Assembly: GCA_965223205.1 (NCBI GenBank)
Contig: CBDCWB010000009.1
Span: 1-28,998, forward strand
From: Candidatus Eiseniibacteriota bacterium
GTDB lineage: Bacteria; Eisenbacteria; RBG-16-71-46; CAVPCR01; CBDCWB01
Length of the DNA: 28,998 bases
Direction: 5' to 3'
The position numbers and the translations under genes are program-made. This document shows, piece by piece, positions 1-23,614 of this stretch. Numbering within the stretch: position 1 is the stretch's first letter; the number at the start of each line of letters is the position of its first letter. The notes beneath the pieces are model-generated. The model was not told the origin of the DNA and did not search any database. It worked only from the letters and a program-made list of their open reading frames with translations.

Positions 1-2658
1 GCACCACCGGATCGGCTTACGACGCCAAGGATTGGCGGGGTGTAGTGCACTCCGGCGGCTATCACCAGCAGGAAGGGTATCTGCTCTACTACGAGGGCGG
101 AGTCAAAAAGGTGCGCGGCGGTGACGGAAACCCTGCGTACCAACTCCAACACTTCCCGCTCGCGTATAACATTTTGCCGGACCACGTTATCGACGCACTG
201 GCAAAGTATTTTGCCGCAACAGGCGCATCCTTCTACGACGCCTGGCGCTACGATGTGCACATGCAGCACCTCGAACGCTGGTTGGCGTTTAAGGAAGACG
301 GCGCTGACCTCATGACAAACGACGATGACTTCAACCTGATAAACAACAACGTGCTTGGCGGCAACTACTCGCACGCCAAGTACGAGCGCGGCGCCGTGTT
401 GTTCTTCCGGCGCATGCTCAAGCACACCGGGCTGGCACTCAACGCGGTGTGGATAAACGGCATGTATAACCTCAAGAGCGGGCTTGAGGAGGGCTGGTTC
501 TACTCGGCGTACGACGCGGCGAACCAATCGATGTACCCGACGGACAACGACGACGTGCGATCGATGTTTGAAAACATCGGCAACCCGGGGCCGGGCGTCG
601 ACAGCGACCTGTTGCTGCTCGAGTACATCAACCGCTGGGGCGCCAACACCGGACACATATTGCACCTTGGCAGTGCGACCAATTGGAGCGTCAACTCACC
701 GGAGACGCAGCAGCAGGGGCTTGAGCGCGCCGTGGGCTTGCGGTTCCGGCGGGACCGCCGGTGGACCGTGGCGCGGCTGGATAGAGTCCGATCAACATGT
801 GCCGTTTTACGACGGGGACGACAATCCAGCGCACCAAATGCGCCGGTTTGCGGACTACGCCAAAGGCCCAAAGGGGCGGCGCACCGAATATCACCTGTAC
901 GCCGACCCCGGCGATGTTACGCCGACGACGCTGCGCTACTCGGGCACTGTCCCGATTTGGCTCCCAACTACAGACCTGGCGCTGGGCACGTGGTCCTATC
1001 AGTGGATTGCGCTTGATCCGGACGACGGCACGAATAACACGATCGCCGCAAAGGCGCTGGTTACCGTCGCCGACCCGGCCGAGCTTCACTATGCGCCCGA
1101 CTTGGTCGACACGCCGACGCCCGCCGAGGGCGCGACAAACCAAAGCGCTTCGGGCGTCAATCTCACGTGGGTAGCCCCCCCAGACGCCGACACGTACGAC
1201 GTGCATCTGAGCACCGATGCTGCGGACGTGGTGTCGCGCACCGCGGGCTCAAAGATCCTTGACAACTCATCTTCAACGTCGGTGAGCACCGGCGCGCTGA
1301 CCCCGGGCGCCACCTACTACTGGTCCGTAGTCGCGCGCAATGCCGGCGGCGACATTGCTAGTGCGGTGTGGATGTTTACGGTCGAGATTGGGCCGTCGGT
1401 GACCCCAGTGATAGCACCCACGATCGCGGTGCGGGCGCCCGTGGCGACGGTGACGGCTGGCGCCGTTGCAACGCAGGTGGCGGCCCCAACGATCGCCGTG
1501 CGCTCGTCACAGGCGACCGTGACGACGGGAGCCGCTCTGACCTCGGTGACCGCCCCGACCATCGCCCTCCGCGCTGGGCTCGCGACCATCGCGGTGGGCC
1601 AGGCCACAACACAGGTTACAGCCCCCACGATCGCCGTGCGGGCTCCCCAGCTGACGGTCAGCACGGGCGCGGTCGCAACTCAGGTAGCGCCCCCGACGAT
1701 CGCCGTGCGTGCTGGGGTTGCATCGGTCGCGGTTGGACAGGTCACAACTCAGGTGGCTGCCCCCACGACCGCCGTGCGCGCGCCCCAAGCCACTGTGAGC
1801 GTTGGGCCTGTGACGACCCAGGTGACGCCCCCAACCATTGCTGTGCGCGCGTCACAGGCGACCGTGACCGCCGGTGAATCTACGACCCAGGTGGTGCCCC
1901 CGACCATCGCCGTCAGAGCTCCTCTTGCCACCGTGGCGGTGGGCCAGGTGGCGACCGCCGTATTGGCCCCAACGATCGCCGTGCGGGCTCCCTCTGCCAC
2001 CGTCTCGGTGGCCGGGCAGGTCTTGACGTCTGTCAACCCACCCGCGTGCGCTGTGCGGGCGCCGGTAGCGACGGTGACCGTCGGGCAGGTGTCGGCTGCT
2101 GTCGCAGCCCCGACCATCGCCGTGCGCGTGCCGCTCCTCACCGTGACCGCCGGCGCCCCGGGCCAGACCACCATCGTCTTGTCCCCAACCATTGCTGTGC
2201 GAGCGGCGGGGGCGACCGTGTCCGTTGGTGGCGCAACGACAACCGTCAGCCCGCCGACGATCGCCGTGCGGGTGCCCCAGATTGGTGTTGCGCGGGAGTC
2301 GACGGGCGGCGGCACCACGCCCCCAGCACCAGCCACCGAGCCCAGGCTGGTGATCGCAGACCCCGGGACGTCAACCGAGCTAACGTTCCGCCAAGACCCC
2401 TCGGCCCACCTGGACTATACGATCGATTGGGTGCGCTGCCTTGAAGGCGGAGATGCAATTGCTAGCTCGACCTGGTCTATCGCCGGCGACGTGCTCGGCG
2501 TCCTGGAGATGGCTAACGACAGCCGCCTCGGCACGCGCACTACCGTCTGGCTCACTGGTGGGCTTGACGGACAGGCCTACAAGCTCGTCAATCACATGCG
2601 CACGAACGACGGGCGCGAGTTCGACCGCACCTTCTTCCTCCGGGTGGAGGAGCGATGA
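1..2658 (+). CDS. Large virion-module protein, 5'-partial (runs off the window start). The N-terminal domain is unassigned and is followed by an Fn3-like domain, an array of 13 degenerate ~23-aa repeats, and a C-terminal domain. The reading frame changes from frame 0 (ORF 45..1016) to the +1 frame (ORF 484..2658) at about nt 735-775, so this is a frameshifted gene, a sequencing indel, or a pseudogene.
   Basis: Frame 0 is protein-like from the window start to about ...ETQQQGLERAVGL and then turns Arg-rich and junk-like. Frame +1 is junk-like before nt 740 and protein-like from ...GWIESDQHVPFYDG onward. The Fn3-like segment is NLTWVAPPDADTYDVHLS...ATYYWSVVARNAGG. The repeats have consensus PTIAVRAPxATVxxGxVxTQVxA. 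The stop at 2656-2658 overlaps the next ATG (ATGA). Confidence 0.6.
1415..2295 (+). repeat. In-frame coding tandem repeat of 13 units of about 69 nt (23 aa), degenerate at both the nucleotide and amino-acid level.
   Basis: The motif ac(g/c)atcgc(c/g)gtgcg(g/c) recurs with a 69-nt period (about 1421, 1490, 1558, 1627 and onward). The peptide units are PTIAVRAPVATVTAGAVATQVAA, PTIAVRSSQATVTTGAALTSVTA, PTIALRAGLATIAVGQATTQVTA and so on, through PTIAVRVPQIGVARE. Confidence 0.85.
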
Positions 2659-3008
2659 TTTTGGGGCGCGTCTGCTGTGGCGTGCGCAGCTTGCTGCGGC
2701 GTTTGTCGGTCGTCCAGGGTCCGACAACACGGCGGCGCCCCTCCACAACAAAGCAGCCAACTACAGTGGACCAAAGAGATCAGGTGGCGATCGAGTTGAC
2801 GCGCCTAGAGGCACAGGCCCAAGCAGTGCTCACTGGTCCGCGAACAAACGATCGGGAAACCGCGGGCTTTCGCCTTGTGCGCCTCGGGGTCTTAGTGCAA
2901 CTTACGTGCCGCTGTGGAGCCAGCGGTCGAGTGATGTTGCCGCCAGCTGGCAGCACACCCTTCACCTGCCGCCGCTGTGCGAGCAATATCGAGGTAACAA
3001 CAGAGTGA
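2655..3008 (+). CDS. Small coiled-coil / zinc-ribbon protein (CxC...CxxC). The real start may be the internal GTG at 2766.
   Basis: The ATG at 2655 overlaps the upstream stop (ATGA). The C-terminal part, VDQRDQVAIELTRLEAQAQAV...LTCRCGASGRVMLPPAGSTPFTCRRCASNIEV, is protein-like with four Cys in a zinc-ribbon arrangement. The first ~35 aa are Arg-rich and may not be translated. Confidence 0.45.
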   Translation: MILGRVCCGVRSLLRRLSVVQGPTTRRRPSTTKQPTTVDQRDQVAIELTRLEAQAQAVLTGPRTNDRETAGFRLVRLGVLVQLTCRCGASGRVMLPPAGSTPFTCRRCASNIEVTTE

Positions 3009-3478
3009 TAGGCCTTTACGATATCCTGGCCCGACATGAGCGCGTTGGTGTCGCCGGATACCCCGACGTGGGCAAGACCACCGTGGCCCAGACGATCGAC
3101 GACCGACCACGCTGGAACACCGGACACCAGGGCACCGGTGGTGACGGCGATACCCCAACTGACATCGGCGTTGGCAACCTCGCCGAGTATTGGGTGGGCC
3201 GGCTGGCGGGCGAACCGCGGTTTGCCCTTGACGGGGTTTTCGTTCCGCGCGTGGCGCGCCGGTCCGTTCGCGACGGGCCGATCGTGCTCGACGCCGTCGT
3301 CTGGGTCGAGCCGCACTCGCGCTGGCACCCTGACGCCCGGCGGCGCGGCTTCCGCCGATCGATTGACACCGTCTGGGACGAGTTTCGTTGGCTCAACCAG
3401 GATCGCGGCGGCCCGATCCAGGTCTACATGGCTGGCTCGGCGGAACTCTTGGGCGGCGAGCTTACGGGGGCGGAGTGA
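3005..3478 (+). CDS. Hypothetical protein with a Walker-A-like motif (AGYPDVGKTT). It uses a GTG start.
   Basis: It is the frame-2 continuation of ORF 2441..3478, which is protein-like only from about 3005 onward. The GTG at 3005 overlaps the upstream TGA (GTGA), and a GAGGT sits 9 nt upstream. The competing frame (3036..3491) is P/S/T/R-rich and junk-like. Confidence 0.45.
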   Translation: MIGLYDILARHERVGVAGYPDVGKTTVAQTIDDRPRWNTGHQGTGGDGDTPTDIGVGNLAEYWVGRLAGEPRFALDGVFVPRVARRSVRDGPIVLDAVVWVEPHSRWHPDARRRGFRRSIDTVWDEFRWLNQDRGGPIQVYMAGSAELLGGELTGAE

Positions 3479-4713
3479 TGTATCTGATTAACGGCAAGCT
3501 GGTCGAAAACGTGCGCCAGGAGACCCTGGACGGGCGCGAGTACGTCGTCGCGCCAGTCGTGCTCCTGACAGAGGGCGTCCATTGCGGCAGTGCGGGCTGT
3601 CTCTACTACCCCGCTGTGGAGCTAGAGCGCTCCGCCGAGCGCTGGAACGGAGTTGAGCTGCCGGTCTATCACCCAGAGGGCGAGACCGCCAGGACCCCAC
3701 AAGTCATTGCACAGCAATCGGTTGGGCGATTGTTTGGCGTCCAGTACCTGGCCTCGCCGACGCCTCGGCTCCGGGGTGAGTTATGGGTTGACAAGGTCAA
3801 GGCAGAGAGAGTACACCCAGGTTTAGTAGATGCGATTGTCCAGCAATCGCATGTTGAGGTGTCAACGGGGTTGGAGGGCGATCCAATTGGTGGCCCCGGC
3901 GCATGGCGGGGTGAGCGGTACATCGCCGCGGTCGGCAACTACCAGCCGGACCACCTGGCCCTCCTGCCTGGGCAGCGGGGGGCTTGCAGTGGAGCCGATG
4001 GATGTGGGGTGTGGATGAACGACGACGGAGCCATTGACAACAAGCTTGGCGGCGCATTGCGCACAATCGCTAACGCTTTTGGGCTACTGCCGAACGGTGG
4101 GGCCGGGCAAGGTGTTGCTCGGGGCGAAGACGAGAAGGAGGACGGGATGGACACAGAACCCGGCAAGGCTGGCGCAGGGTCGGCTGAGAACGAGGAACGT
4201 TGCACCTGTGGTGCGGCGAAAAACCAGGACGACAACGCAGCCGGCCGGGAAGACTCATTGGGAGCCGGCGACGAAGCGCAGAAGGAAGGCGTTGCCGCGA
4301 CCGGGACCAAAGACGTCAGGCCCGAGGGCGACGGCGAGGAACAAAAAGCCCCCGAACAAGACAGCGAGTCGGTAACCACTGAAGATTACGTTGCGCAAGC
4401 GCCGCAGGCGGTGCGCGAGGTGCTTGAGGAAAGCCTGGCCGCGAACGCGGCCGAGAAAGATCGCCTGGTCAGGGCGATTCTCGACAATAAGCGAAACGCA
4501 TTTGCTGAAAACGACCTGCGGGCGATGCCTATTGCTAGCCTGCGAAACATCATGGCGATTAGTGATGGCGGTGTGGATTACTCCGGCGCCGCATCCGCTC
4601 CGGTGACCAGCGCAAACGCCGGCGGCTCGAAACCCGCCAAGGGCATGCCGAACTACCTCAACCAAGAGGCCACCGCGAAGCGCCTCGGGCTAAAGGAAAT
4701 GAGCAATGGGTAG
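3478..4713 (+). CDS. Putative prohead protease/scaffolding-like protein. It has an N-terminal globular domain (DUF2213-like, recalled from memory) and an acidic, low-complexity, coiled-coil-like C-terminal half.
   Basis: The ATG at 3478 overlaps the upstream TGA. The N-terminal segment is MYLINGKLVENVRQETLDGREYVVAPVVLLTEGVHCGS...VYHPEGE. The C-terminal half is rich in E, D, K, A and G (EDEKEDGMDTEPGKAGAGSAENEE...). It sits directly upstream of the decoration-like and capsid genes. Confidence 0.5.
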   Translation: MYLINGKLVENVRQETLDGREYVVAPVVLLTEGVHCGSAGCLYYPAVELERSAERWNGVELPVYHPEGETARTPQVIAQQSVGRLFGVQYLASPTPRLRGELWVDKVKAERVHPGLVDAIVQQSHVEVSTGLEGDPIGGPGAWRGERYIAAVGNYQPDHLALLPGQRGACSGADGCGVWMNDDGAIDNKLGGALRTIANAFGLLPNGGAGQGVARGEDEKEDGMDTEPGKAGAGSAENEERCTCGAAKNQDDNAAGREDSLGAGDEAQKEGVAATGTKDVRPEGDGEEQKAPEQDSESVTTEDYVAQAPQAVREVLEESLAANAAEKDRLVRAILDNKRNAFAENDLRAMPIASLRNIMAISDGGVDYSGAASAPVTSANAGGSKPAKGMPNYLNQEATAKRLGLKEMSNG

Positions 4714-5134
4714 TTTCAAGACCATCCGGATCAAGTGCGACGGGCATTTGTACAAGGAGGCGAAAGCTGGCGCCGTGATCACGCCCGGCACGCTCCTTTC
4801 GCGCGACGCGAATGGAGCGTTTATTCCACACGCAACCGCCGGCGGCGCATTTGTGCCCCTCTTTGCCTTCGAGGGTGAGCTAACGGGGCGCACGATCCAA
4901 GACACCTACGCGTCCGGCGAACAGTGTCACGCGTTGAGCTGCTTTGCTGGGCACGAGGTGCATGCCCTCTTGGTCGCGGGTGGATCGGTGTCCCCTGGCG
5001 ACGCGTTGTCCTCAAATGGTGACGGCACGCTCAAGGCCGCCGGTGCGGGCGACACTGTCGTCGGCTACGCAATGGAATCCCTGGACATCTCGGGTGGTGG
5101 CGATCCCCACATTTGGATCGAGCTTGCAGCCTAG
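4706..5134 (+). CDS. Small virion protein, DUF2190-like (possible head decoration or cement protein).
   Basis: It overlaps the upstream gene by 8 nt, with an AAGGA 8 nt upstream. The Gly/Ala-rich beta-type segment SPGDALSSNGDGTLKAAGAGDTVVGYAMES resembles DUF2190 proteins as I recall them. It lies immediately 5' of the major capsid gene. Confidence 0.5.
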   Translation: MGSFKTIRIKCDGHLYKEAKAGAVITPGTLLSRDANGAFIPHATAGGAFVPLFAFEGELTGRTIQDTYASGEQCHALSCFAGHEVHALLVAGGSVSPGDALSSNGDGTLKAAGAGDTVVGYAMESLDISGGGDPHIWIELAA

Positions 5135-5146
5135 CCGCTGCATTGG

Positions 5147-6160
5147 GTGGAGGTGGATGAGGTGCCTTTGGGACAAGCGGGGCTAGGCCCCGTACAAATG
5201 GACGACTTGCAGGGGGGCGGTAGACTCGCTCGAGCGATCGTTGCAACGAACGGTGACACGTCGCAACTGCGCAATGACACGACGCTGCGAGAGGACGACT
5301 GGGAGCGGATTGACGAGCGCGTGGTCACCGTGGCCACAAAACGCTTGGTTGGCTCGCAAGATCTCATTGCGCGCGGGTTGATTACACCGATCGACGGCAT
5401 GCGATTTACGCACGCCAGATACGAGAGGGTCTCGCGACTCAACGAGGCCGTGATGTCGATGGACGGTCAGGTGCGCTCACCCGCCGACCGACTGGTTTTC
5501 GAGCCGGACGGCACACCGCTGCCTATCACGCACATTGACTACAACATCAACCTGCGGGCACTCGAAGAGTCCCGAAACGGCAACACGCCGCTCGACACTA
5601 CGTCACACGGCATCGCCGCAGATGAGGTTTCTCGCAAGGTCGAGAAAACTCTGTTTAACGGGGCGGGTGGCTACATGTACGGCGGCTACGCCGTGTACGG
5701 CTATACCGACTTCCCGCAGCGCGTCACGATGGGGTTTGGTGTTGGCCCATGGTCCGCGGCAGCTCGCACCGGCGAGGAGATTCTCCTCGACGTGCTCGCC
5801 TTGCTCCAGGGGGCGATCGATTCAAACAAGTTCGGCCCCTATGGGATCTACTACTCGCGAAACGCTTCGACCAAAATGGCAGAGGACTTTAAGGCGAACT
5901 CCGACAAGTCGATCCGCGAGCGCATCATGGAAACGCCGGAGCTCCAGTTTTTCAAGGCTGCGGACTACCTGGCAGACGACAATGTGGTCTTGGTTAATTT
6001 AGACCAAGATACCGTTGAGATGATCGTCGGCTTGCAGGTCACACCGTTTGAGTGGACCGACGGGCCGGGATTCCAGCTTAACTTCAAGCAAGCCGCAATC
6101 TTGGTGCCACGCCTCAAGTCTGACTACCTCGGGCAGAGCGGCGTGGTCCACATGAGCTAG
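5147..6160 (+). CDS. Major capsid protein, HK97-fold, encapsulin/linocin-like family. The start is GTG at 5147 or ATG at 5198.
   Basis: LREDDWERIDERVVTVATKRLVGSQDL...PIDG and INLRALEESRNGNTPLDTTSHGIAADEVSRKVEKTLFNGAGGY align by eye with the encapsulin N-terminal helix and E-loop/P-domain regions (T. maritima encapsulin: LTEKQWQEIDNRAREI..., [39 protein letters not shown]). A GGAGGTGG lies upstream. Confidence 0.75.
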   Translation: MEVDEVPLGQAGLGPVQMDDLQGGGRLARAIVATNGDTSQLRNDTTLREDDWERIDERVVTVATKRLVGSQDLIARGLITPIDGMRFTHARYERVSRLNEAVMSMDGQVRSPADRLVFEPDGTPLPITHIDYNINLRALEESRNGNTPLDTTSHGIAADEVSRKVEKTLFNGAGGYMYGGYAVYGYTDFPQRVTMGFGVGPWSAAARTGEEILLDVLALLQGAIDSNKFGPYGIYYSRNASTKMAEDFKANSDKSIRERIMETPELQFFKAADYLADDNVVLVNLDQDTVEMIVGLQVTPFEWTDGPGFQLNFKQAAILVPRLKSDYLGQSGVVHMS

Positions 6161-6168
6161 GAGCGCAA

Positions 6169-6465
6169 ATGAGCGACAAACAAGCCGACAAGGCGCCGCA
6201 AAAGGAGGGCACCAGCAAGCGCTGGCGCCTTGTGAGCGGTGCACACTATCGCGATGGCAAGCGCCTGGAGGCGGGCGCTGTAGTTGAGTGCCCGGAGGAT
6301 GAGCTCGGCTCGGCCATCGACAAGTTCGTGGACGCGGATTCCCCCGCAGCATCGGGTGGCGGCGGGGTCAGCTCCGACGCCGTCGCCCAGATCGAGGCGC
6401 AGCGAGACGCGGCGCTTGCCCGCGTCGCAGAGCTCGAGGCCGGCGGCAAGGCCAAGAACAAATGA
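6169..6465 (+). CDS. Hypothetical small protein in the head module.
   Basis: An AGGAGC sits 6 nt upstream of the ATG. It is protein-like and coupled to the next gene. Confidence 0.55.
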   Translation: MSDKQADKAPQKEGTSKRWRLVSGAHYRDGKRLEAGAVVECPEDELGSAIDKFVDADSPAASGGGGVSSDAVAQIEAQRDAALARVAELEAGGKAKNK

Positions 6466-6722
6466 CCGACGACAACGGCGCGCAGGCGGTTCCCGCACCA
6501 GACGCCCCGTCTGAGCCCAAGGCGACACCACCTGTCGTGCGCCGGGAGTATCGGTTCACCCGTCAGGTAGGGAGAGTCTACTTACCGCACCCGCACGATG
6601 ACTCGCGACGGGTGCGCTGGTCCTTCGACGAGGGCCACACGCACATGCTCAGCGATGCGGAGGCGACGCGCCTTAACAACCAGGGCGGGGGCCACGTCGT
6701 GGAGTTGGTTGACGAGGAGTAA
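6462..6722 (+). CDS. Hypothetical small protein.
   Basis: ATGA overlap with the upstream gene. Composition is protein-like. Confidence 0.5.
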   Translation: MTDDNGAQAVPAPDAPSEPKATPPVVRREYRFTRQVGRVYLPHPHDDSRRVRWSFDEGHTHMLSDAEATRLNNQGGGHVVELVDEE

Positions 6723-6725
6723 CGT

Positions 6726-7115
6726 GTGGATACGGCACCGCGCGTAACAGAGACCGAGGTCATCGCCATCATGGACACGGCGATGACCCCGGAGGAGGTG
6801 CAGCCACACCTGGAGGCAGCCCACATCGCGGTGGACTACCACCTACTCAACCGCGACGGATACACCCCCTCCGTGCTGGAGCAGGTTGAGAAGTATCTCG
6901 CGGCGCACATAGCGACGGTTACGCGCGACCGGCGCCGCCACGCGTACAAAGAGAAGATCGGCGAGGCAGAAATTCAATACAGTTCTGGCGGAAAGGATGG
7001 TTTCGGGCTTCATCGGTCGTCATACGGCGAGATGGTGAAGCTCTTGGACAAGGACGGGATCCTGGCGGCCCTTGACAAGGCCTCGACCCCGGTCTCGATC
7101 GAGGTGATCGCGTGA
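6726..7115 (+). CDS. Putative head-tail connector/adaptor-region protein.
   Basis: GTG start 6 nt after a GAGGAG. It lies between the capsid and tail genes. Its 129 aa size is typical of HK97 gp6-like connector proteins. The assignment is by position only. Confidence 0.45.
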   Translation: MDTAPRVTETEVIAIMDTAMTPEEVQPHLEAAHIAVDYHLLNRDGYTPSVLEQVEKYLAAHIATVTRDRRRHAYKEKIGEAEIQYSSGGKDGFGLHRSSYGEMVKLLDKDGILAALDKASTPVSIEVIA

Positions 7116-7486
7116 GCGACGTTTTCTTGGAGCACCTATTGACCGAACCTGCGCTCCAGTTTCCAGCGCAAGGGATGACCGACTATGGTCGGCACCTGTT
7201 CGGTGAACCTGCCCAAATAAAGTCGCGGTGGGAAACCATCACACGGGTGCAGCAAGCGGTTGGTGAAGAGGTCGTCGTCGAGGATCGGGTCGAAGAAGCA
7301 AGGGTGTTCGCGAGCGCTGATATGAGCATAGGGGACCTTCTGTGGCGTGGAGATCACGGCGAGCTCGCACCTCGCGATCTAGATGACCCCGCAGCGATCG
7401 ACGGCATCTATCGTGTAGAGAAGTTTGTCAAGACGCCCAGTGTGGACGGCGGGCGGTTCGTTCGAGCAGCAACTGTTCGGCGGTAA
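7112..7486 (+). CDS. Hypothetical head-tail joining-region protein.
   Basis: GTGA overlap with the upstream gene. A GAGGTG sits 5 nt upstream. Confidence 0.5.
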   Translation: MSDVFLEHLLTEPALQFPAQGMTDYGRHLFGEPAQIKSRWETITRVQQAVGEEVVVEDRVEEARVFASADMSIGDLLWRGDHGELAPRDLDDPAAIDGIYRVEKFVKTPSVDGGRFVRAATVRR

Positions 7487-7489
7487 CCC

Positions 7490-8071
7490 GTGCGATTCAG
7501 CCTGACTGTGGACGCAAGCGACCCTCGGAAACGCCTAAATGAAATCAGTGGCAAACTCGATCGTGAGCTCAAAAGCGCAAACCGCTCGAACGAGCGCGCC
7601 GTTCGGGATGCAGTGCGCTCAAGGCTGCGTGGAAACACGGGGAGCGGTTCCCTTTCCAGGCGGTCGGGAAACTACGAGCGCCGAATCCAAACGTCGTCCA
7701 GGGTTAGAGCGCCCGAAGCTCACACGCTTGTGTTCGTGCGGACGCGTGGACCACGAGCGGTACGACAAGCTCGCATTCTCGAACTCGGCGGAACTGTCCG
7801 TGCCAAAGGAGGGCGATATCTCGCAATTCCGCTTGGTGCCGTCGCCAAACAGCGCAACCCGTCTCCGCGAAACCACCCAGATGGATTCTTCTTTCGGTCG
7901 CGGCGCGGCAATCTTCTATACGGCGAGCGCGCCGGAACCGGGCTTGTCCCCCTGTTTGTGCTCAAGCGATCGGTCACCATTCCACCGCGGCCCATCTGGC
8001 GGCTTTCGGCGGAGGAAGCAAGAGCGAAGGTCGTGGACCGCTACTTTGACGCCGTCACGAGATCGGTATGA
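7490..8071 (+). CDS. Hypothetical head-tail joining / tail completion-region protein.
   Basis: GTG start 3 nt after the upstream stop. Assignment is by position. Confidence 0.45.
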   Translation: MRFSLTVDASDPRKRLNEISGKLDRELKSANRSNERAVRDAVRSRLRGNTGSGSLSRRSGNYERRIQTSSRVRAPEAHTLVFVRTRGPRAVRQARILELGGTVRAKGGRYLAIPLGAVAKQRNPSPRNHPDGFFFRSRRGNLLYGERAGTGLVPLFVLKRSVTIPPRPIWRLSAEEARAKVVDRYFDAVTRSV

Positions 8072-8901: not shown

Positions 8902-10008
8902 ATGTCGGCACCAAGTTCACTAGTATCGAAGCTCGGGTTCAACTTCGAGAGCGTCTACGGCGGGTCAATGACCCCTAGCGATTTCCTGTTGCAGTCACCG
9001 GGAAAGGGGTTTCGCGTCTATCCGACGCAGTATCTGCCGAGGTACCCGCAAACGCCCAACGATCGCCCTGAAGTCCGTGGCGAGGCCGAGGGGATCGACC
9101 ACACGCGAATCACGACGGGAAAAATCACGGTCTCGCACGACCTTAGTTGGGATGTCCACTATTCGGGCATCGATGCGATGCTGATCGGTGCGGCGTTCGG
9201 TAACATCACGACGACAGGGTCGGGGCCTTACGTGCACACCATTAGACCGGGGCCAACTTTGCCGTCATTCGTGGTGGGCTGGATCACGCCATACGAGACG
9301 GAACTCACGTTCGACTCCCACTTTTACAACGGGATAGTCGCAAACACGCTCACGCTTTCGCACAGCGGTGAAAGTCCGCTATCCGGGTCTCTGTCGTGTA
9401 TTGGGCGAGACTGGGCAGAGTTTTTCCCGATCCTCGTACCGACTGACACCGTGACCGAACCAGGTCTATTCCAGCTCGAGGACGTCGTTGAGTGGCACCA
9501 CATCGATCCAGCTGGTTGCATCGCGGTGTCTGCCAACGGTGGCGGCGACGTCGAGGTCACGGCCGAGAGCGTTGAGTTCACCCTCAACAACAACCTCAGC
9601 TCCCGAGCGGTCTTGGCCAAGGGCCGCTACGGAAGCAGGCCCGGGCGTGGCGGGAAGCGCGACTTCATCTTGCGCGTGAAGCTGGACAAGGACAACGCGT
9701 GGAAGACCTTCCACGATGTTTTGGGTAGCAGCTCCTCAGCGACACAGGGGCGTGGTCGCGTGTCGGTGCCCTACGTCGGCCCGGGCAATCAGAAGATGAC
9801 GGTCGTATTGCAAAACTGCCAGGTGTTGGACTTGTCCCCAACGCTAGAAAACGACGAGGAGATGGTGCCCACCGCTGAGGTGCGCGGCCACTACCTAGCT
9901 TCGGAAACAGGCGACGACCAGCTCCCGTGCATCATCACCATTGAAAATGATAGGGAAGGCCCAGGTGGGCATTCCTCGAACCCAGCCACTTTCGGCGATG
10001 CCTTCTAG
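8902..10008 (+). CDS. Major tail (tube) protein.
   Basis: A strong AGGAG RBS is present. The 368-aa protein is beta-rich. It sits immediately 5' of the chaperone and tape-measure genes, which is the canonical siphovirus order. Confidence 0.6.
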   Translation: MSAPSSLVSKLGFNFESVYGGSMTPSDFLLQSPGKGFRVYPTQYLPRYPQTPNDRPEVRGEAEGIDHTRITTGKITVSHDLSWDVHYSGIDAMLIGAAFGNITTTGSGPYVHTIRPGPTLPSFVVGWITPYETELTFDSHFYNGIVANTLTLSHSGESPLSGSLSCIGRDWAEFFPILVPTDTVTEPGLFQLEDVVEWHHIDPAGCIAVSANGGGDVEVTAESVEFTLNNNLSSRAVLAKGRYGSRPGRGGKRDFILRVKLDKDNAWKTFHDVLGSSSSATQGRGRVSVPYVGPGNQKMTVVLQNCQVLDLSPTLENDEEMVPTAEVRGHYLASETGDDQLPCIITIENDREGPGGHSSNPATFGDAF

Positions 10009-10722: not shown

Positions 10723-13339
10723 ATGCCAAGGCGCTCAACTGAGTCCATCATTGGCGTTCGCACCGAGTTTGATGGATCGGAGCTGAGCGCTGGCGCCGCA
10801 CGAATAAGCAAAACGCTGGACGACATCGACCGCGAGGCATCGCGAGCTCTTAGCTCTGCGGGCAACGCAACGCGCGGCGTCGACAAGGCGGTTGGTGCTA
10901 GCGATAGCTCCGCGAAGGGGCTTCTCGGGACGGTGACCTCGCTCCACCCCGCCCTGCTTGCTGTAGCAACTGCGGCCACAGCAGTTGTTAGCGCTTGGGC
11001 TGGTGTGAAGATTGGCAAGGCAGCGTTCAATGACGTGCGCGAGGCAATCGGTGAACTCGACGAGCAAGTAGCCAAGATCCAGAGGACCTCGATTCAGGCG
11101 TCTGTGAGCCCGGAGTTTGTGCAGGTCTACCGCGAGGCGGCGCGATCTGTTGAACGCAACGTGGGCAGGATTGACCGCGCGTTGATCATTCTGTCCCGCC
11201 GACTCGCGTCCGCTCAGTCGGGGGGACACTAAGGCCATTCGTGCGTTTGAAATCGCGGGGATAGAGAATCTCCAGCAGTACGAGAGCCTGGAAAAGCTAC
11301 TTCCCTCCCTTGCTAAGAATATTGCTGGTGTGGAGACTCAACAAGAAAAGGCAGCGGTTGGAGCTGCCCTGTTTGGCCGACGGTACCTCGACCTTTACCG
11401 GGTCCTCGTCCAGGGCGGCGAAGCGATCGAAAGTGCACAGGCGAGGTTTTCAGCCGGGCAGTTCGGGTTCAGCGCCGCCGAGCTAGAGACAATTGCAAGT
11501 GCAGAGACGGCTTTTGCCCGGTTGGATCGGACGGGCGGTCTCTTGGGCGACAAGTTTCGAGTCGGCTTGGCGCCGGCCGCTGCGCTGGTTGCCAACGAGA
11601 TCGATGGTGTTGCAGCTAGCTCAAGGGCTCTTAACGCTGCGTTGGGTGCCGGGCGCGCTATTGGTGACGCCTTTTTGGGCGCTGCTGGGGTCGTGTCCGA
11701 CGCAAGGGGTTCGATCGATGGTATGACGACCGGTTGGCAGAGGTTCTTGCGGACAGCGACTCTAACACCGTTTGCAGGTGTTCTGAAGGACATCCGGCTC
11801 GCCAGGGCGCTTCTCGACAAACTCGCGGGGCGCGGTCGAGCCTTACGTGAAAGTAGCGAGCCCGATACGCCCGGCGGCCCGGGCGCAGAGCCGCAACCAG
11901 ACAACCAAATCGCGGTGGACCAACTGGGGCTTCAGGCTCTAGCGCGGAAAGCGATTGCTGCCCAAGGCAAGGAACAAGAGCAACTACTTCGGCTTCTTCG
12001 ATCTCGAATCCAGTCGGAACGCCAGGTGACGGACCTGGTTCGGTCCCAGACAGAGCTGGTAGAGCGCCAAGCAAGGATCGGTCGCCTTGGGCAAGACTTC
12101 CGGACGCTTGTGGGTCGGGAACTCCAAGGTCTGGAGCGAGATGCGGAGCGCGGCGCTGGCGCCTTTGCGCCCCGGTCTCTGGACACGCAAGCTTTTGCTC
12201 CACCGCGATTCGACCCCACTGTGCCGGCGCGGCCGCGGGAGTTTCAGATTGCGGGGCTGACCGAGGACGACCGCCGACGCTTGCGCCGCGGTCCAGAAAT
12301 CGACACTGACGATACCGAGCGCGCGACGCAGGCCTTGGACGGGTTCAATCGGACGATGGATGCCGCCGGTGACGTTGTGTTTGCGGTGACCGGGAGGGTA
12401 GACACTGCCCTTTCCCGGGTTGTGTCGGGCTTGCGCGGGCTTCTTGGGGTACTTGCGCAGATTCGCCAGGCGGCGGACGCATGGGGTGCGATTCGCGAGG
12501 CGAGTTCGATTGCTTCCGCCGCCCTGGGAAGTGCGCCGGCTGCCAGCGGGCTGGGTGCGCCTGGCGGCTCTAGCGCCGGCGGGGGACTTCTCGATAGAGA
12601 GGGGATCTACTTTGGCAGCGCCGCCAAACCCTCAGCAGCGCTTCCTGTCCGAGTAGTCGGCGCCGTTGGTGCCGACATCGTCGATATTGACAGTCGGGCC
12701 TCCAAGAGCCTCGCGGGTGCGATCGGAACAGCTGCTGGAAGCAAGGAGCCGACGACAGGGGCGCCGTCGGAGCCCGTCGGCGGTCAGCCGGCCGGCGTCT
12801 TTGCAGAGATTCTGTCCGCAGCATCAAGCGCGATCAACGTCGCATCCAAGTTTGTGAGTCGGCCTGGCCCCCTCAGTGCCGGCCCGTCCTTTGAAGTCGC
12901 GACGGCGCTTGGTTTCTCGCCATTTCGCGAAGAACCGCTATTCCAAGGTACGCAACGCTTTGCTGGCGCTGATTTGGTCGACTCGCGCAACGAGGAGGCG
13001 ATCCGGGCCGCGACAAGCGCCAGGTTGCGATCCCAATCGTTTGAGTCTCGATTCGCGGAGCTGTTTCCCGGCGCCGAGTCTTTTCCGGCGCTGCCCGGTG
13101 AGGAGGGACGCTTTCGCATTCCGTTCACCTCGGAAGACGTTGTTCTCCGCCGGGAGGTGCCGCTTTCTGGTATCCCTGGCACGCAGCAGATTGTGCAGCC
13201 GATATCGCCAGGGCAAGCCGACTTTCCAGGGGCAACTCAAAACAACTTCTACATCCAGTCGTTCGATCCCGCTGGCACTCGGGAGATCATCAACTCAAAG
13301 GTGTTTCGCGACGAACTCGAAGAGGTTTCGAGGCGCTAG
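10723..13339 (+). CDS. Tail tape measure protein. It is split by a +1 frame change at a G6 homopolymer (11220-11225). Part 1 is 10723..11232 and part 2 continues in the next frame to 13339.
   Basis: Part 1 ends ...LASAQSGGH*. The next frame reads ...GDTKAIRAFEIAGIENLQQYESLEKLLPSLAKNIAGVETQQEKAAVGAALFGRRY... without a stop from the G-run onward. Removing one G gives ...AQSGDTKAIRAFEIAG... in a single frame. The protein is Ala/Gly-rich, coiled-coil-like and has a hydrophobic segment, all typical of tape-measure proteins. Confidence 0.7.
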
Positions 13340-17004: not shown

Positions 17005-17442
17005 ATGCATACCGTCACGCTGACAAGATGGGGCTCGACCCCGATGGGGACCTTCGGCGAGCTGCGCGCTCCGGAGTTTCGGTGCTACACCGTCGAGCCG
17101 CCGTGGAGAGGCAACGCGCGATACCTCTCGTGCATCCCGCCAGGGGTCTATCGGTTGGAGTTGGGTTCGTACCATGTCGGTGGGTACCCGGCCTATGAGC
17201 TGGTAGGTGTGCCCGGTCGAGATCTCATCAAGATTCACGCGGCAAACCGGGCACGCGAGTTGCTCGGCTGCATCGCCGTTGGAAACGACTTAGCTTGCAT
17301 CAACGGCGAGTGGGCTGTGCTCAATAGTCGCCGGACGCTAAAGCGTTTGCACGCCGTGCTCGCGCGAATGGAGAGCAAGGGCTTGGCGCCGGCGATTAGG
17401 ATCGACTGGCGGGTGATCTCAGAGCGCCTGGAGTACGCGTGA
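17005..17442 (+). CDS. YkuD-like (L,D-transpeptidase catalytic fold) protein, a candidate peptidoglycan peptidase or endolysin.
   Basis: The motif IKIHAANRARELLGCIAVGN resembles the H...(S/T/G)xGC(I/V) catalytic His/Cys signature of LD-transpeptidase domains. It sits after the tail genes, where lysis cassettes usually lie, and follows a 63-nt lower-GC intergenic spacer. Confidence 0.4.
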   Translation: MHTVTLTRWGSTPMGTFGELRAPEFRCYTVEPPWRGNARYLSCIPPGVYRLELGSYHVGGYPAYELVGVPGRDLIKIHAANRARELLGCIAVGNDLACINGEWAVLNSRRTLKRLHAVLARMESKGLAPAIRIDWRVISERLEYA

Positions 17443-17756
17443 TGGCTGACAATGGGTCCTCAAAAACCAACGGAAGGTCGGTGGTGCTCAACAACTACAT
17501 CAAGGTTGTTTGGGGGTCCGTTACAGCGTTTGTGTTGTTCTTCTTTGCGGCCGACCGGTACACAGAACACAAGATAGTGACGCTTGCGCCTTACGCGCAG
17601 GAAAAACGATTGGTTGACCAGCGTTTCTCCGACATCGACCGGCGCGTTTCGGCGGTGGAGTCCAGCGCCGCTGGGATCCACTCGCAAATTGCTCTTGTTA
17701 ACCAGTCGCTGGGAGAGATAAAGGGGAAGCTCGATGTTTTCATGGATCAGAAATAG
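17442..17756 (+). CDS. Single-TM membrane protein with a C-terminal coiled coil (holin- or i-spanin-like).
   Basis: One hydrophobic helix (VVWGSVTAFVLFFFAADRY). It is followed by a heptad-like segment (LVDQRFSDIDRRVSAVESSAAGIHSQIALVNQSLGEIKGKLD). Start is coupled to 17005..17442. Confidence 0.4.
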   Translation: MADNGSSKTNGRSVVLNNYIKVVWGSVTAFVLFFFAADRYTEHKIVTLAPYAQEKRLVDQRFSDIDRRVSAVESSAAGIHSQIALVNQSLGEIKGKLDVFMDQK

Positions 17757-19527
17757 AGAGCGCTTGGTGTGTGTGTTGGTGCTGTTGTTCGTGGTGCTGC
17801 TTTGCGCGTATGGCGTCGCAACAGCAAGCCCGTCGCGCACCGAGGCCTTGCGCGCGGCCGAAACGATCCTTGAGTATTTGAGTGCGCCGGCGGACACGAC
17901 TGGCGGTGGCGGACCCGGTGGTGCCGGCGGAGGCGGTGAGCCCGACGTGCCGCGTGGGTGGCAGGCGGGGAGTACGGTGCTCTCAGCCGGAAGGGATGGT
18001 GATAGTGATGCGCGGTTGTCGGGCGCCGTCTCCCCGGTGGCGCTGGTCCAGCACCGGGCCGAGTGGCTTCTCTACTACGTCGGGTCCGAGGGCGATCGTC
18101 AGGACGACGGTGGCCCGCGGCGCCGGCGCCTCATAATCGCCACTTCGCCCGACCTAGAGAGGTGGACTAAGCGTGGCGTGGCGTTTGAGTGGCTACCCAA
18201 CGCCGCCGAGGAGGAAGCGGTCTACTCCGCTGCCATCCTCGCCGAGGGTGACGAGGTGCGGGCGTGGGTGACCGCGTGCACCCAGACGCGTGAGCCGCGG
18301 CCGGGCAGGCCGGGAGCGGTCTCCTGTGACGTGCGCTACCTCACGTCACAGGACGGCCGCCGTTTCCGCGACCGGGGCGAGGTCCTGAGTCACCGGGACC
18401 CAGGCGTCTGGGGCCACGGTGACGAGCTGTTCACCGTGGCCGCTCGCCGGCGCCCGGGCGGCGGGTTGCAGCTCTGGTACCTGGCGCGCTCTGGCACCGC
18501 CGCGCGCGAGCTGGGAGTTGCGGAGATCGACGCCGGCGGCCGGGTTGTTAGGACCGGCCCAGCGCTACCGGGCGTCGAATGGGTCGACAACGTCGAGGTC
18601 ATTGGCAACCTGGCGACAGTTGACGACAAGAGGTCAACGCGTACCACGGTCTACCGGGTGCGCCCCAACGGGCGCCTCGGCGAGCGTGTCGGCGAGTGGC
18701 GCGACCTGGGCGCGGGAGACTCGCCAAATTACTGCCTCTGGTACGACTCCGCCGGGTGGCGGATGGTGTACCGAGACGGCGAGCGGCTAAGGTGGGCCAA
18801 CGCCACTGGCACGTCAGCCAGCCAGGGCGGTGGCAGCGGGGGCGGTGGGTCCGGTGGCGGATCGTCGGGGGGCGATCCTGCCGGGCTCCGTCCCTGTGAC
18901 TGGCCGGTTGTCGGGGATGGATATTGCGTAGAGCGCGGCGGACGTCAGTGGGCAGTGCGCAAACCGGACAAGGTCCGGGACCTCGGCGACGGCGTCGTCT
19001 GGTTTGGCACTCGCAACGCCTCGTCCACCCTCGTGTGGGATCCGCCGGCGCGCTCTGGTTGGTGGGAGTGGCAAGCGTGGTACGAGCCCGGGTGCTTCCC
19101 TGCTGCGCGCGGGCGGGGCAAGCACTATCACTCGATGTTCCAGCACCGCCTTGATCTGGGCGGCCGGTACCGAGACGAACTGGACGAAATGACAGTGCTT
19201 AGGTTCGAGATCGCGGACCTGGGGACGCGCCCGCGCGGCATCGTCTGGCTATACGATGACGACTTTGCCGGGCGCGCCGAGCTGGTCATGCCCTGCGGCC
19301 AACCACCCGAGCATGGCCGCTGGTACGACTGGCGCTTTGAGTGGGCGATCGACGCTCGTGACGAACTCGTCATCCGCGTAACGCGCGACGGTGAGGAGCT
19401 TTGCGCGGGGGAGGTCGCGGTGCCCGGCGCCCAGGGCTTTGGGCAGCTCATGCCCTGGGGCCACGTCGAAGGCGTGATTGACGAGGATGCTGGGGTCCGC
19501 ATCCGCAACATGAGGTGGGGTAGATGA
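17734..19527 (+). CDS. Secreted multi-domain protein. It has a signal peptide or TM segment, a beta-propeller glycoside-hydrolase-like domain (GH43/GH32-like), a Gly/Ser linker, and a Trp-rich C-terminal beta domain.
   Basis: N-terminal MFSWIRNRERLVCVLVLLFVVLLCAYGVATASP. The motifs WLLYYVGSEGD and LIIATSPDLERWTKRGVAFEW resemble the blade motifs of 5-bladed beta-propeller glycosidases. The linker is SQGGGSGGGGSGGGSSGG. The C-terminal domain has WYDWRFEW. Confidence 0.45.
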   Translation: MFSWIRNRERLVCVLVLLFVVLLCAYGVATASPSRTEALRAAETILEYLSAPADTTGGGGPGGAGGGGEPDVPRGWQAGSTVLSAGRDGDSDARLSGAVSPVALVQHRAEWLLYYVGSEGDRQDDGGPRRRRLIIATSPDLERWTKRGVAFEWLPNAAEEEAVYSAAILAEGDEVRAWVTACTQTREPRPGRPGAVSCDVRYLTSQDGRRFRDRGEVLSHRDPGVWGHGDELFTVAARRRPGGGLQLWYLARSGTAARELGVAEIDAGGRVVRTGPALPGVEWVDNVEVIGNLATVDDKRSTRTTVYRVRPNGRLGERVGEWRDLGAGDSPNYCLWYDSAGWRMVYRDGERLRWANATGTSASQGGGSGGGGSGGGSSGGDPAGLRPCDWPVVGDGYCVERGGRQWAVRKPDKVRDLGDGVVWFGTRNASSTLVWDPPARSGWWEWQAWYEPGCFPAARGRGKHYHSMFQHRLDLGGRYRDELDEMTVLRFEIADLGTRPRGIVWLYDDDFAGRAELVMPCGQPPEHGRWYDWRFEWAIDARDELVIRVTRDGEELCAGEVAVPGAQGFGQLMPWGHVEGVIDEDAGVRIRNMRWGR

Positions 19528-19787
19528 GCGCGGTCGATATCGTGAGTGAAGCGATCCTTGTCAAGTCTCCAAGGTACGAGCCAGCGTCGGGCGAGTACGT
19601 CGTTTGGGATGGAGACGTAGTGTTCGGCTGTCCAAAGTGTGGCGGCCTCACCAGGCTCACCGACAATCATCGCGTGGGCCGCGATGGGTTGGTGCGACCC
19701 TCCGTCGTGCACACTCCGTGCGGGTGGCACGTCTGGTTGCGCTTGCGCGGTTGGACCCACCATGAGGACGCCGGGATTAGGAGATGA
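19524..19787 (+). CDS. Small Cys-containing (CPKCGG ... TPCGWH) hypothetical protein.
   Basis: ATGA coupling to the upstream gene. A GAGGTGGGG RBS is present. The Cys spacing suggests a zinc-ribbon-like fold. Confidence 0.5.
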   Translation: MSAVDIVSEAILVKSPRYEPASGEYVVWDGDVVFGCPKCGGLTRLTDNHRVGRDGLVRPSVVHTPCGWHVWLRLRGWTHHEDAGIRR

Positions 19788-20170
19788 ATTGGATGACATG
19801 GTCACCCGGCCACACCGACGCGCTTCTGATCGCCAACGCGATCGTCGCCGTGATCCTCGAGTGGCGCACGTTGGCCAACGCCGTGCCCGGTGACCACATC
19901 ACGCCGCGCCTCCGCCGGTTGCTGAGGCAGAGCTGGGCGTGGCCGTACTTCCTCGGCGGGCTGTTTGCCCACTTCGCGCTCTACGCGCTGTTCGAAGCGG
20001 TGCGACCACCGTGGCCGTACGTCGTGGCGCTCGCCGCCTGGTTCTTTTCTGTCTGGGTTGTGTTTGTTTTTGGCGCCGGGTTCCGGCGCTCCGGTGGCTA
20101 CACGTCGCCGGCGATCGTTGGGGTGCTGTCGCTCGCCGGGATGGTGTGCGGCGGCTTTCTGTGGGGGTGA
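19784..20170 (+). CDS. Integral membrane protein (3-4 predicted TM helices), holin-like or exclusion-like.
   Basis: ATGA coupling with an AGGAG RBS. Hydrophobic helices include ALLIANAIVAVILEW, WPYFLGGLFAHFALYALF, YVVALAAWFFSVWVVFVFGAGF and IVGVLSLAGMVCGGFLW. Confidence 0.55.
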   Translation: MNWMTWSPGHTDALLIANAIVAVILEWRTLANAVPGDHITPRLRRLLRQSWAWPYFLGGLFAHFALYALFEAVRPPWPYVVALAAWFFSVWVVFVFGAGFRRSGGYTSPAIVGVLSLAGMVCGGFLWG

Positions 20171-20757: not shown

Positions 20758-21035
20758 AAACGAACGCCATATATCTGTGTTATGAATATTGTCCTCTCGT
20801 CTTCGCCGAATTTGTAAGAACACCCCCAGAAGCACCTCGCCCCGTTCGCGTCGATCTCGAATCGGAAGTCGGGCCGGCCCAGGTGTGTCGTTCCGCGCCT
20901 CGGACTTGATGCCAGCCGATGCAATGCAGACTCGACGCCGTCTAGCGCGGCGTCTTGGCACTCGTCGGGCAGGTTGTTCACCAGTTCGCGAAGCCCATTC
21001 TTGGCTGTATCAGTGATTCTGAGCTCGTAGCTCAT
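20754..21035 (-). CDS. RelE/ParE-superfamily-like toxin (93 aa).
   Basis: By-eye alignment to E. coli RelE: ...LASSPRRGTTHLGRPDFRFEID... against ...LESPRIEANKLRGMPDCYKIKL..., and ...ARCFWGCSYKFGEDERTIFITQIYG against ...YRLVYQVIDEKVVVFVISVG. It overlaps the upstream Panacea-like gene by 26 nt. The locus is lower-GC. Confidence 0.55.
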   Translation of the reverse strand: MSYELRITDTAKNGLRELVNNLPDECQDAALDGVESALHRLASSPRRGTTHLGRPDFRFEIDANGARCFWGCSYKFGEDERTIFITQIYGVRF

Positions 21036-21588
21036 TCATCACATCTGCGAGAGGCTGGCTCCTGCCCGCCTCTACGTCCGCTTCCCCAGCGAGCATGCTT
21101 GACAGACTGAAGCCCGAGTGCTTGCGAGCCGCGTTGTCAACGATGTGCATCGGCACATTCTCCTTTGGGCTCGCCTGGAGCATTGGCTCTGTCTTGTAGA
21201 CGACTTCTTCGCAGACGTACCTCGCGGACATGTTGAGATACGTTTCGCCAACGTAGCTCAAGACCTCTTGTTCTTCCACCGTGAAGTCGTCGTACGTCGA
21301 CTTCAGTGGTCGCAGGTCGTGCGCAGCGTATTGGCCGCATGAGACTTGGTTGTCCGCAACAAAGCCTTTGTTAGTTAGCTCTGAGAGCGCCTTATAGAAC
21401 CGCCTCGAATCAAACGGACCAAAGTCATCGTAAATGTACGTGAAAGACGATATGGGCACACCGCGATAACGGCGGGACTCCAGGTCGGCTAGGTAGACGA
21501 ACTTCGCCAACAGCGTGTGTCCGATTCCTGGGGCAATCTGCAGAAGATACAATAGTACCCGCGCATCGCGGCTGAGTTCATCAGGCAT
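21010..21588 (-). CDS. Panacea-domain (DUF4065)-like protein, the putative antitoxin partner (PanA-like). The start is the ATG at 21588, downstream of the ORF-track start.
   Basis: LLAKFVYLADLESRRYRGVPISSFTYIYDDFGPFDSRRFYKAL resembles the DUF4065 core (KLQKLLYxAQ...G.PLF...F.AW.YGPV....Y). An AAGGGGAAG RBS lies 5' of the ATG at 21588. Its 3' end overlaps the small toxin-like ORF. Confidence 0.5.
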   Translation of the reverse strand: MPDELSRDARVLLYLLQIAPGIGHTLLAKFVYLADLESRRYRGVPISSFTYIYDDFGPFDSRRFYKALSELTNKGFVADNQVSCGQYAAHDLRPLKSTYDDFTVEEQEVLSYVGETYLNMSARYVCEEVVYKTEPMLQASPKENVPMHIVDNAARKHSGFSLSSMLAGEADVEAGRSQPLADVMNELRAQNH

Positions 21589-21843
21589 CTTCTTCCCCTT
21601 CCGTTCCCAAGGCAAGTGTTCCAGTTCAGGTAACGGCGACCGCAACCACCAGCTTAACATGCAGACTACACAAAAGATGCGGTCTTGGTTTCACATTGTA
21701 AGGAGAAAACCGACCAGCTCCGGAGTCTGGTGGCTGCAACCAGCACTCCCCGGCCGGTTATCCAGCCTATCCATAGTAGCATCCCCCCTGCACTACACTC
21801 CGCCACCAGCAAAGGACGTACTCCTCAACCGTCGGACCCCACA
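21589..21843. promoter_or_regulatory. Divergent promoter/operator region between the Panacea-like operon (-) and the XRE regulator (+).
   Basis: A 255-nt non-coding gap between divergently oriented starts. It is lower in GC than the flanking genes. No motif was assigned with confidence. Confidence 0.4.
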
Positions 21844-22143
21844 ATGCCCGCTCGACAGATGCGCAGGAGGCGCGGCGACGCCAATCGTCGGCGCCAGTTT
21901 GGCGTTTGGCTCCGGGAGTGCCGGATCCAGGCCGGCTTGACCCAGGGCGAAGCCGCCGAAGCGATTGGGGGGACGTGCACCCGGTCGACTGTGTACCGCT
22001 GGGAGACGGGACGCCACGCTCCGCCGATCAACGTCATGGTGGCGCTCAAGCGGCTGTACGGGTTCGAGTGGAGCGAGGTCGAGGAGATGGCGCAGTTTCT
22101 CCCGATGCGAGACGACGCCGGGAAGAAGCGGGGCAGCGCCTAG
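21844..22143 (+). CDS. XRE-family HTH transcriptional regulator (99 aa).
   Basis: FGVWLRECRIQAGLTQGEAAEAIGGTCTRSTVYRWETGRHAPPINVMVALKRLYG is a classic Cro/C1-type HTH. No clear SD is present. It is convergent with the HEPN-like gene and overlaps it by 4 nt. Confidence 0.65.
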   Translation: MPARQMRRRRGDANRRRQFGVWLRECRIQAGLTQGEAAEAIGGTCTRSTVYRWETGRHAPPINVMVALKRLYGFEWSEVEEMAQFLPMRDDAGKKRGSA

Positions 22144-22983: not shown

Positions 22984-23009
22984 GGCAGTTCTTCTTTCCT
23001 GGGACACCG

Positions 23010-23606: not shown

Positions 23607-23614
23607 TACGGCCC

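Follow-up and report, generated by a model that had tools for sequence, protein, structure and literature searches.

A modular, frame-broken putative fibre gene with a C-terminal Gp77-type domain in a prophage of Candidatus Eiseniibacteriota

The window analysed here is the whole of contig CBDCWB010000009.1 (28,998 nucleotides, nt) from the Candidatus Eiseniibacteriota bacterium assembly GCA_965223205.1. It covers the right-hand portion of an integrated, long-tailed, siphovirus-like prophage, which can be recognized as tailed because both a tail tube protein and a tape measure are present; an integrase is encoded as well. The contig begins inside a large gene, henceforth gene X, which is consequently truncated at its 5' end and lacks its true start. 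Gene X combines recognizable domains with orphan segments across a change of reading frame, and we regard its product, on balance, as a candidate side fibre. Its features, with lengths in amino acids (aa), are as follows:

1-2658, + strand: gene X, 5'-truncated, with the frame change inside
3-780, + strand: N-terminal orphan domain in frame 3 (246 aa), cut by the contig end
720-808, + strand: zone of the change from frame 3 to frame 1, placed by the switch in G+C content at third codon positions (GC3) and by codon-model likelihood
742-1110, + strand: orphan segment of ~120 aa between the frame break and the Fn3-like module, beginning with the Gly-rich stretch GSGGTAGGP
799-2658, + strand: P0001, the frame-1 open reading frame (ORF) as called in public databases (619 aa, GTG start, single-member cluster)
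1132-1353, + strand: Fn3-like module (PF00041, E 5e-6, 27.0 bits against a cut-off of 25)
1414-2319, + strand: 13 tandem 23-aa repeats, a predicted three-stranded beta-solenoid stalk
2320-2385, + strand: Pro/Thr-rich linker, PPAPATEPRLVIADPGTSTELT
2386-2658 including the stop codon, + strand: Gp77-type "fiber-tail adaptor" domain (PF23148), the last ~90 aa

Domains and repeats of gene X

The key clue to gene X, and one absent from the sequence-only reading of this DNA, is its C-terminal domain, which matches the family PF23148 ("Podophage GP4 fiber-tail adaptor protein gp77") along the entire model (positions 1-84 of 84) with an E-value of 5.8e-22 and 78.5 bits against a cut-off of 27. A phmmer comparison relates the same domain to the solved GP4 chain 8jou_D (E 4.8e-5). 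The top match recovered with Foldseek for the AlphaFold2 (AF2) model is 8jou_B ("Fiber I and fiber-tail-adaptor of phage GP4"), with 33% identity over 81 columns, albeit as a weak match (E 0.026) to a model whose predicted local distance difference test score (pLDDT) is only 36-67 in this C-terminal region. Thus, the last ~90 aa of gene X resemble GP4 gp77 (PDB 8JOU) from end to end and are ~33% identical to the solved chain; the two differ in that gp77 is a free-standing protein of ~90 aa in a podovirus tail, whereas the domain terminates a protein of more than 880 aa in a long-tailed phage. GP4 gp77 reportedly forms a 15-mer ring around the head-to-tail adaptor, where it is said to anchor the fibres.

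Seven standalone phage proteins could be aligned end to end with the Gp77 domain of gene X at 31-44% identity, with coinciding ends and the shared motifs LDY..D, GD, VWL.GG..G..Y and RV.ER. In tblastn searches the domain was found in 74-76 phage records, each time as a free-standing gene of ~90 aa, with hosts from the genera Mycobacterium, Gordonia, Rhodococcus, Microcystis, Sphingobium, Bradyrhizobium and Roseobacter. The actinobacteriophage versions (Mycobacterium cluster L gp22, GodonK gp94 and Jflix2 gp2), which like gene X belong to long-tailed phages, show 38-42% identity over the whole domain, but they are encoded by separate small genes and no adjacent protein resembles the rest of gene X. 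The profile phrog_4137, which spans 349 positions and ends in a Gp77 domain, matches gene X beyond the domain itself, and fused forms of Gp77 therefore probably exist elsewhere.

The genomic context of these relatives provides further information. In GP4 the Gp77 gene lies between the gene for a 568-aa protein and two annotated tail-fibre genes, in the Mycobacterium cluster L phages and Gordonia phage GodonK it is embedded in the minor-tail cluster, and in Rhodococcus phage Jflix2 it adjoins minor-tail genes near the end of the genome. The Bradyrhizobium and Microcystis phages have it between the capsid and tail genes. In Microcystis phage Mwe-JY26 and phage DSL-LC06 the Gp77-like gene directly follows hypothetical genes of 834 aa and 448 aa, respectively. 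The succession of a large uncharacterised gene and a Gp77-like gene is hence seen in three unrelated phages, Mwe-JY26 (4459-7255), DSL-LC06 (5610-7288) and GP4 (3180-5167), which suggests that a large protein and its adaptor constitute a conserved gene pair, of which the fusion in gene X could be the joined version. The body of gene X shows no similarity to the large genes preceding standalone Gp77-like genes in other phages.

The second prominent feature is the repeat array, whose 13 units begin at 1414, 1483, 1552, 1621, 1690, 1759, 1828, 1897, 1966, 2038, 2107, 2182 and 2251. Eleven of the 13 units are 69 nt long, one is 72 nt and one 75 nt, with the last being degenerate and ending at ~2319. 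The consensus is [AP]PTIAVRAPxATVxVGxVTTQVx, in which P2, A5 and R7 are invariant across the 11 gapless units. Tandem Repeats Finder detects the array with periods of 69 and 138 nt, a separate repeat search places 12 copies in register, and a degenerate DNA pattern of the form PTIAVR-N51-PTIAVR yields five matches in the window as against none in 100 shuffles. On average, two units share 57% of their amino acids and 58% of their nucleotides; identity amounts to 69% at codon positions 1 and 2 and to only 38% at position 3, and 59% of the codon pairs that specify the same residue in two units differ in codon. Such low third-position identity, together with the differing codons, indicates that the array is old and has been maintained at the level of the peptide. 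The sequence-only reading had described 13 degenerate 23-aa repeats at 1415-2295, conserved as peptide, diverged as DNA, old and under selection, and these statements hold up well, the array lying far beyond chance and extending over 1414-2319; its further suggestion of a beta-solenoid-like element is upheld as a prediction only, by AF2.

The AF2 model was computed as a monomer from the single sequence of P0001, with no alignment, because homologues of the repeats were not found. It attains pLDDT values of 75-94 over about ten or eleven units, and assigns three short strands to each 23-aa unit (e.g. TTAVR, QATVSV and VTTQ in unit 6), separated by turns at the conserved Pro, Gly and Pro-Pro positions. 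The residue pattern accords with such a fold irrespective of the model: in a solenoid of this type the alternating small hydrophobic residues I4, V6, A11, V13, V15, V18, T20 and V22 would pack into a narrow interior, with R7 facing outward, so that 13 arginines would form a ladder along a segment that carries just two acidic residues. Beta-helical and solenoid proteins available for comparison include the right-handed parallel beta-helix stalks of the phage tailspikes and depolymerases of HK620, 9NA, LKA1 (gp49) and Pam1, the antifreeze protein of Marinomonas (3P4G) and the curlin of Pontibacter (8C50). Unlike the enzymatic tailspikes, gene X has far more regular repeats, no obvious catalytic groove and an invariant Arg ladder, and its fold is a predicted one. 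The region 1396-2319 has no match at E<=1 to any Pfam family, the Beta_helix, PbH1, pectate-lyase and curlin repeat families included, and a degenerate DNA pattern of two adjacent PTIAVR motifs is absent from the IMG/VR and JGI metagenomes searched.

The repeats could alternatively form an intertwined trimeric beta-structure, like the needles and fibre shafts of phages (up to ~190 Å), or a flexible, partly disordered spacer, rather than a monomeric beta-solenoid; we consider this unlikely. Phage fibres are usually trimers and triple-stranded beta-helices have a periodicity of ~8 residues, to which the three similar sub-motifs of 7-8 aa that make up each 23-aa unit (TIAVRAP, ATVxVGx and VTTQVxP) come close. 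Moreover, AF2 is known to yield confident yet unrealistic solenoids for repeat sequences (PMC11795689). The monomeric solenoid is the arrangement that the strands and turns of the AF2 model describe.

Upstream of the array, the sequence-only reading had proposed an Fn3-like domain, and this is corroborated by a marginal pass against PF00041 and by the homologues of the module. The latter (P0002-P0006) are the sole non-self homologues of the protein recovered among 5.8 billion proteins; they match the Fn3 module only, and contain tandem copies of the same "SYDVYFGT...YYWxVxAxN" module. The AF2 model has a pLDDT of 38-54 in this region, below 35 in the orphan segment at 742-1110 and below 50 in the Pro/Thr-rich linker. 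The Gly-rich stretch GSGGTAGGP at the beginning of the orphan segment may represent an inter-domain linker.

The remaining segments are orphans in sequence terms. The N-terminal 246 aa have no match in Pfam, PHROGs, NCBIfam or the PDB sequences, nor a homologue among the 5.8e9 proteins covered by a word-index search, and an exhaustive phmmer search of 1.84e9 representatives with residues 1-367 of the fused protein returned no non-self homologue at E<=0.001. The AF2 model of this domain is mostly helical in secondary structure, with a pLDDT of 33.7 that makes it unusable for a fold search. The segment at 742-1110 recovers itself alone in the exhaustive search and has no Pfam match at E<=1. Word-index searches with the fused protein, its N-terminal 367 aa, and the repeats plus C-terminus gave only self and Fn3 matches. 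Relatives were likewise not found when 50,697 phage records were searched by tblastn with the repeats and with the N-terminus, nor by megablast of nt 1-8000, and searches for related loci by major capsid protein (MCP) and N-terminal domain drew a blank in IMG/VR, GTDB genomes and JGI metagenomes. A polysaccharide-lyase-like layout, with a helical domain followed by a beta domain, was considered for the N-terminus and found no support. Among viral structures, the P0001 model comes closest to BFVD entry A0A6J5Q5Q3, a 668-aa protein of an uncultured Caudovirales phage, with which Foldseek aligns it over 491 columns at 20% identity (probability 1.00, E 1.5e-3); the entry may share the layout of a stalk plus an anchor.

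The change of reading frame

From the contig edge (nt 3), frame 3 runs without interruption until the stop at 1014-1016; its GC3 is 0.87-0.90 up to ~760-790 and 0.4-0.5 thereafter. Frame 1, in its turn, is open over 484-2658 and carries a coding signal from ~790 onward. The codon-model likelihood places the switch at 781, with an optimum that is flat over 739-808. No run of G or C in the frame-change zone exceeds 4 nt, and the zone contains neither a homopolymer nor a stop codon. This agrees with the sequence-only reading, which had a frame switch without obvious homopolymer at ~735-775, inside the frame-change zone. As causes that reading had offered a sequencing indel, an inactivating mutation or a programmed +1 shift, to which two overlapping genes can be added as a fourth candidate. 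Relative to an intact ORF, the change corresponds to one extra base or two missing bases.

The most likely explanation is that a single, originally continuous gene suffered a 1-base insertion or a 2-nt deletion, be it an error of the assembly or a real mutation of the prophage. This is favoured because frame 3 meets no stop for ~230 nt past the switch, because its continuation is non-coding-like in composition, as seen in the collapse of GC3, because the GTG at 799 is not preceded by a Shine-Dalgarno motif, and because frame 1 reads through GSGGTAGGP, plausibly a linker, ahead of the downstream part. Read as it stands, the sequence would leave the N-terminal domain disconnected from the stalk and the anchor.

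Two overlapping genes without any lesion would account for the same region as an orphan helical protein running to the stop at 1016 and a fibre gene starting at GTG 799 or TTG 721, with an overlap of 200-300 nt. Under this scheme the given sequence needs no error, the public annotation does start the 619-aa protein at GTG 799, and the likelihood optimum of 739-808 includes that position. However, the frame-3 GC3 of 0.4-0.5 after ~790 would then belong to a tail of ~75 aa that is Arg-rich and unlike a real protein, and a Shine-Dalgarno motif at the right spacing was found before neither 799 nor 721, while most other genes of the window have one. Gene overlaps of more than 200 nt are also unusual, and taken together we judge the two-gene scheme to be rather improbable.

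Tailed phages use programmed frameshifts in structural genes, and a programmed +1 ribosomal frameshift at this site would yield mostly a short N-terminal product and a fraction of full fibre, thereby setting their ratio. The direction of the change is indeed +1, and the rare codon AGA occurs in frame 3 at 783-785, right at the likelihood optimum. Nevertheless, no known slippery motif is present in 720-808, the P-site codons GAT and GTC cannot re-pair in +1, the zone has no in-frame stop, and the zero-frame product would carry the same ~75 aa of non-coding-like tail; we hence give this mechanism hardly any credence.

The decay of a defective prophage was one of four readings considered for the origin of the break. 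Two further regions were examined, the tape-measure region and 17.4-21 kb, and in neither was another broken gene or a frame break seen. For the same reason a generally error-ridden contig was dismissed; an apparent overlap of the ORFs at 11330/12876 is due to the extension of an ORF upstream.

Neighbouring genes and the prophage setting

The other genes and landmarks of the window are:

2655-3008, + strand: small Cys-rich ORF (117 aa), no family match
3005-3478, + strand: small P-loop ORF (157 aa), motif GYPDVGKTT
3475-4713: scaffold/protease-like gene (phrog_760)
4706-5134: head decoration gene (phrog_766, E 7e-20)
5147-6160, + strand: MCP (DUF6260, encapsulin-like)
8902-10008: tail tube gene (Phage_tube_2)
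~11201-13339: tape measure
between tape measure and integrase: large tail genes, then a lysis/accessory region, then a helix-turn-helix regulator
21010-21660, - strand: SocA/Panacea-domain antitoxin-like protein
22573-23040, - strand: PD-(D/E)XK_3 nuclease
23615-24844, - strand: 408-aa TPR protein
26090-27190: tyrosine integrase

The nearest sequenced phages are the Brevundimonas phages MaInes and StAshley, with an MCP that is 36% identical and a scaffold protein matching at E 1e-24. MaInes displays the order large terminase, an unnamed 500-aa ORF (a portal by position only), an inserted endonuclease VII and scaffold. The site between its portal-position ORF and the scaffold gene may accordingly be an insertion spot, as judged by this one comparison of gene orders. 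After the Brevundimonas phages, the next match of the MCP is to the archaeal Halorubrum virus Hardycor1 (E 6e-22, with 29.6% identity along the full protein), a resemblance between capsids that crosses domains of life.

Gene X immediately precedes the genes for scaffold, decoration and major capsid proteins, which speaks for a head fibre or capsid decoration whose Fn3 module and stalk would stick out from capsomers or the portal vertex. Phage heads commonly bear Ig/Fn3-like modules, two standalone Gp77-like genes, those of the Bradyrhizobium and Microcystis phages, do lie between capsid and tail genes, and the Gp77 ring of GP4 reportedly encircles the head-to-tail adaptor. The sequence-only reading had offered a head fibre, a decoration fibre or a fused portal; it had also seen gene X in the position expected of a portal or minor head protein, although the contig itself starts inside the gene. 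Nonetheless, gene X has no match to any head-decoration or head-fibre family in Pfam or PHROG, nor to portal or Mu-F-like minor head proteins, the prophage has a decoration gene of its own at 4706-5134, and most relatives of its C-terminal Gp77 domain are found among tail-fibre or minor-tail genes, which undercuts a place on the head. We therefore regard a head location as improbable. A fusion with a portal was rejected, there being no Pfam, PHROG or NCBIfam match and, by BLASTP against the 500-aa ORF of MaInes, only a score of E 0.24. Gene X was also considered as a target of a diversity-generating retroelement, and this too was discarded, with no pair of template and variable repeats in the window and no reverse transcriptase among the subset of ORFs scanned.

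Several further genes of the window merit mention in their own right. The 117-aa ORF directly downstream of gene X has a zinc-ribbon-like C-terminus (Cys-x-Cys...Cys-x-x-Cys). The 157-aa ORF that follows contains the Walker-A-like GYPDVGKTT, with faint matches to AAA_18/nSTAND3 (E 0.12-0.38); a P-loop protein at such a place within a head module, between gene X and the scaffold gene, is unusual. The 597-aa protein encoded at 17734-19527 (+ strand) combines a hydrophobic N-terminal segment with two long linkers rich in Gly, lacks Pfam and NCBIfam matches, and is flanked by a DUF5675 gene (17005-17442) and a multi-pass membrane, holin-like ORF (19784-20170); it could be a new lysis or cell-wall enzyme. 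The minus-strand accessory block at 21010-24844, which separates the lysis region from the integrase, may represent an island of defence or toxin-antitoxin genes carried by the prophage. No transfer RNA gene was detected in the window with ARAGORN. The stretch of 27.3-29 kb beyond the integrase includes a secreted-looking ORF at 27308-27943.

A candidate fibre with its own foot

We lean towards viewing the gene X product as a side fibre of the siphovirus-like prophage virion that is anchored to the tail or neck by its own Gp77-type foot. This preference follows from the Gp77 homology, which is the one solid element, from the neighbourhood patterns of the Gp77 relatives and from the predicted fold. 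In such a fibre the free, distal end would be formed by the orphan, mostly helical N-terminal domain, which might, purely at a guess, bind or cut glycans. Next inward would come the orphan segment and the Fn3-like module as a spacer, and then a stalk of 13 stacked 23-aa turns, which would measure ~60 Å if it is a monomeric beta-solenoid, with its small hydrophobic residues inside and its 13 arginines outside. The Pro/Thr-rich linker would serve as a hinge between stalk and anchor, and the C-terminal Gp77-type domain would dock the protein onto the tail or neck.

Several observations weigh against this architecture. A C-terminal anchor reverses the usual polarity of fibres, and gene X adjoins head genes, not tail genes. 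At the level of BLAST, Gp77 is never fused to a large protein in the 74-76 phage records. No relative of the whole protein was found against which the fusion, or its continuity across the break, could be compared. Finally, the Fn3 score exceeds its cut-off only marginally, and the stalk is modelled as a monomer by a single-sequence method that is prone to spurious solenoids.

A more elaborate version envisages a self-anchoring fibre of reversed polarity that has captured its former holder, the Gp77 ring adaptor, as its foot, with 15 (or 5x3) solenoid stalks radiating from the neck or tail and Arg ladders gripping polyanionic surface polymers; here the frame change at nt ~780 would have a real function in recoding or regulation, determining how much free N-terminal domain is made relative to full fibre. 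We offer it as a speculation with very little probability. In concept, a ring at the head-tail junction from which fibres are suspended has a counterpart in the Anabaena myophage A-1(L), where the gp5 pentadecamer forms a 15-fold neck ring bearing five neck fibres of gp82/81/80 (PMC10966104). In A-1(L), unlike the fibre proposed here, attachment is via the N-terminal domain of the fibre and the ring protein is separate and helical (PMC10966104); no sequence relation of these proteins to gene X is known.

The recognizable parts of gene X, namely the Fn3 module, the predicted solenoid stalk and the Gp77 adaptor, are each of a known kind, and the gene combines familiar phage components in an uncommon way without amounting to a novel type of system. 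It stands out for having the adaptor joined to a large protein, for carrying the putative anchor at its C-terminus and for containing three segments that are sequence orphans across billions of proteins. The practical value of the locus is modest, as it offers one truncated, frame-broken copy of the gene on one short contig, and orphan modular phage fibres are common. Relatives of the 23-aa Arg-ladder repeat and of the N-terminal domain could not be detected among the ~15 billion public proteins covered, with the N-terminal part searched exhaustively against 1.84 billion representatives, which makes both of them candidates for a new module that binds receptors or acts as an enzyme. If the fibre interpretation is true, then the recently defined Gp77 adaptor can exist as a fused fibre foot as well as a separate ring protein, and this would aid the annotation of the many small "hypothetical / minor tail" Gp77-like genes, frequently neighbours of large uncharacterised ones, found in actinophages, cyanophages and proteobacterial phages.

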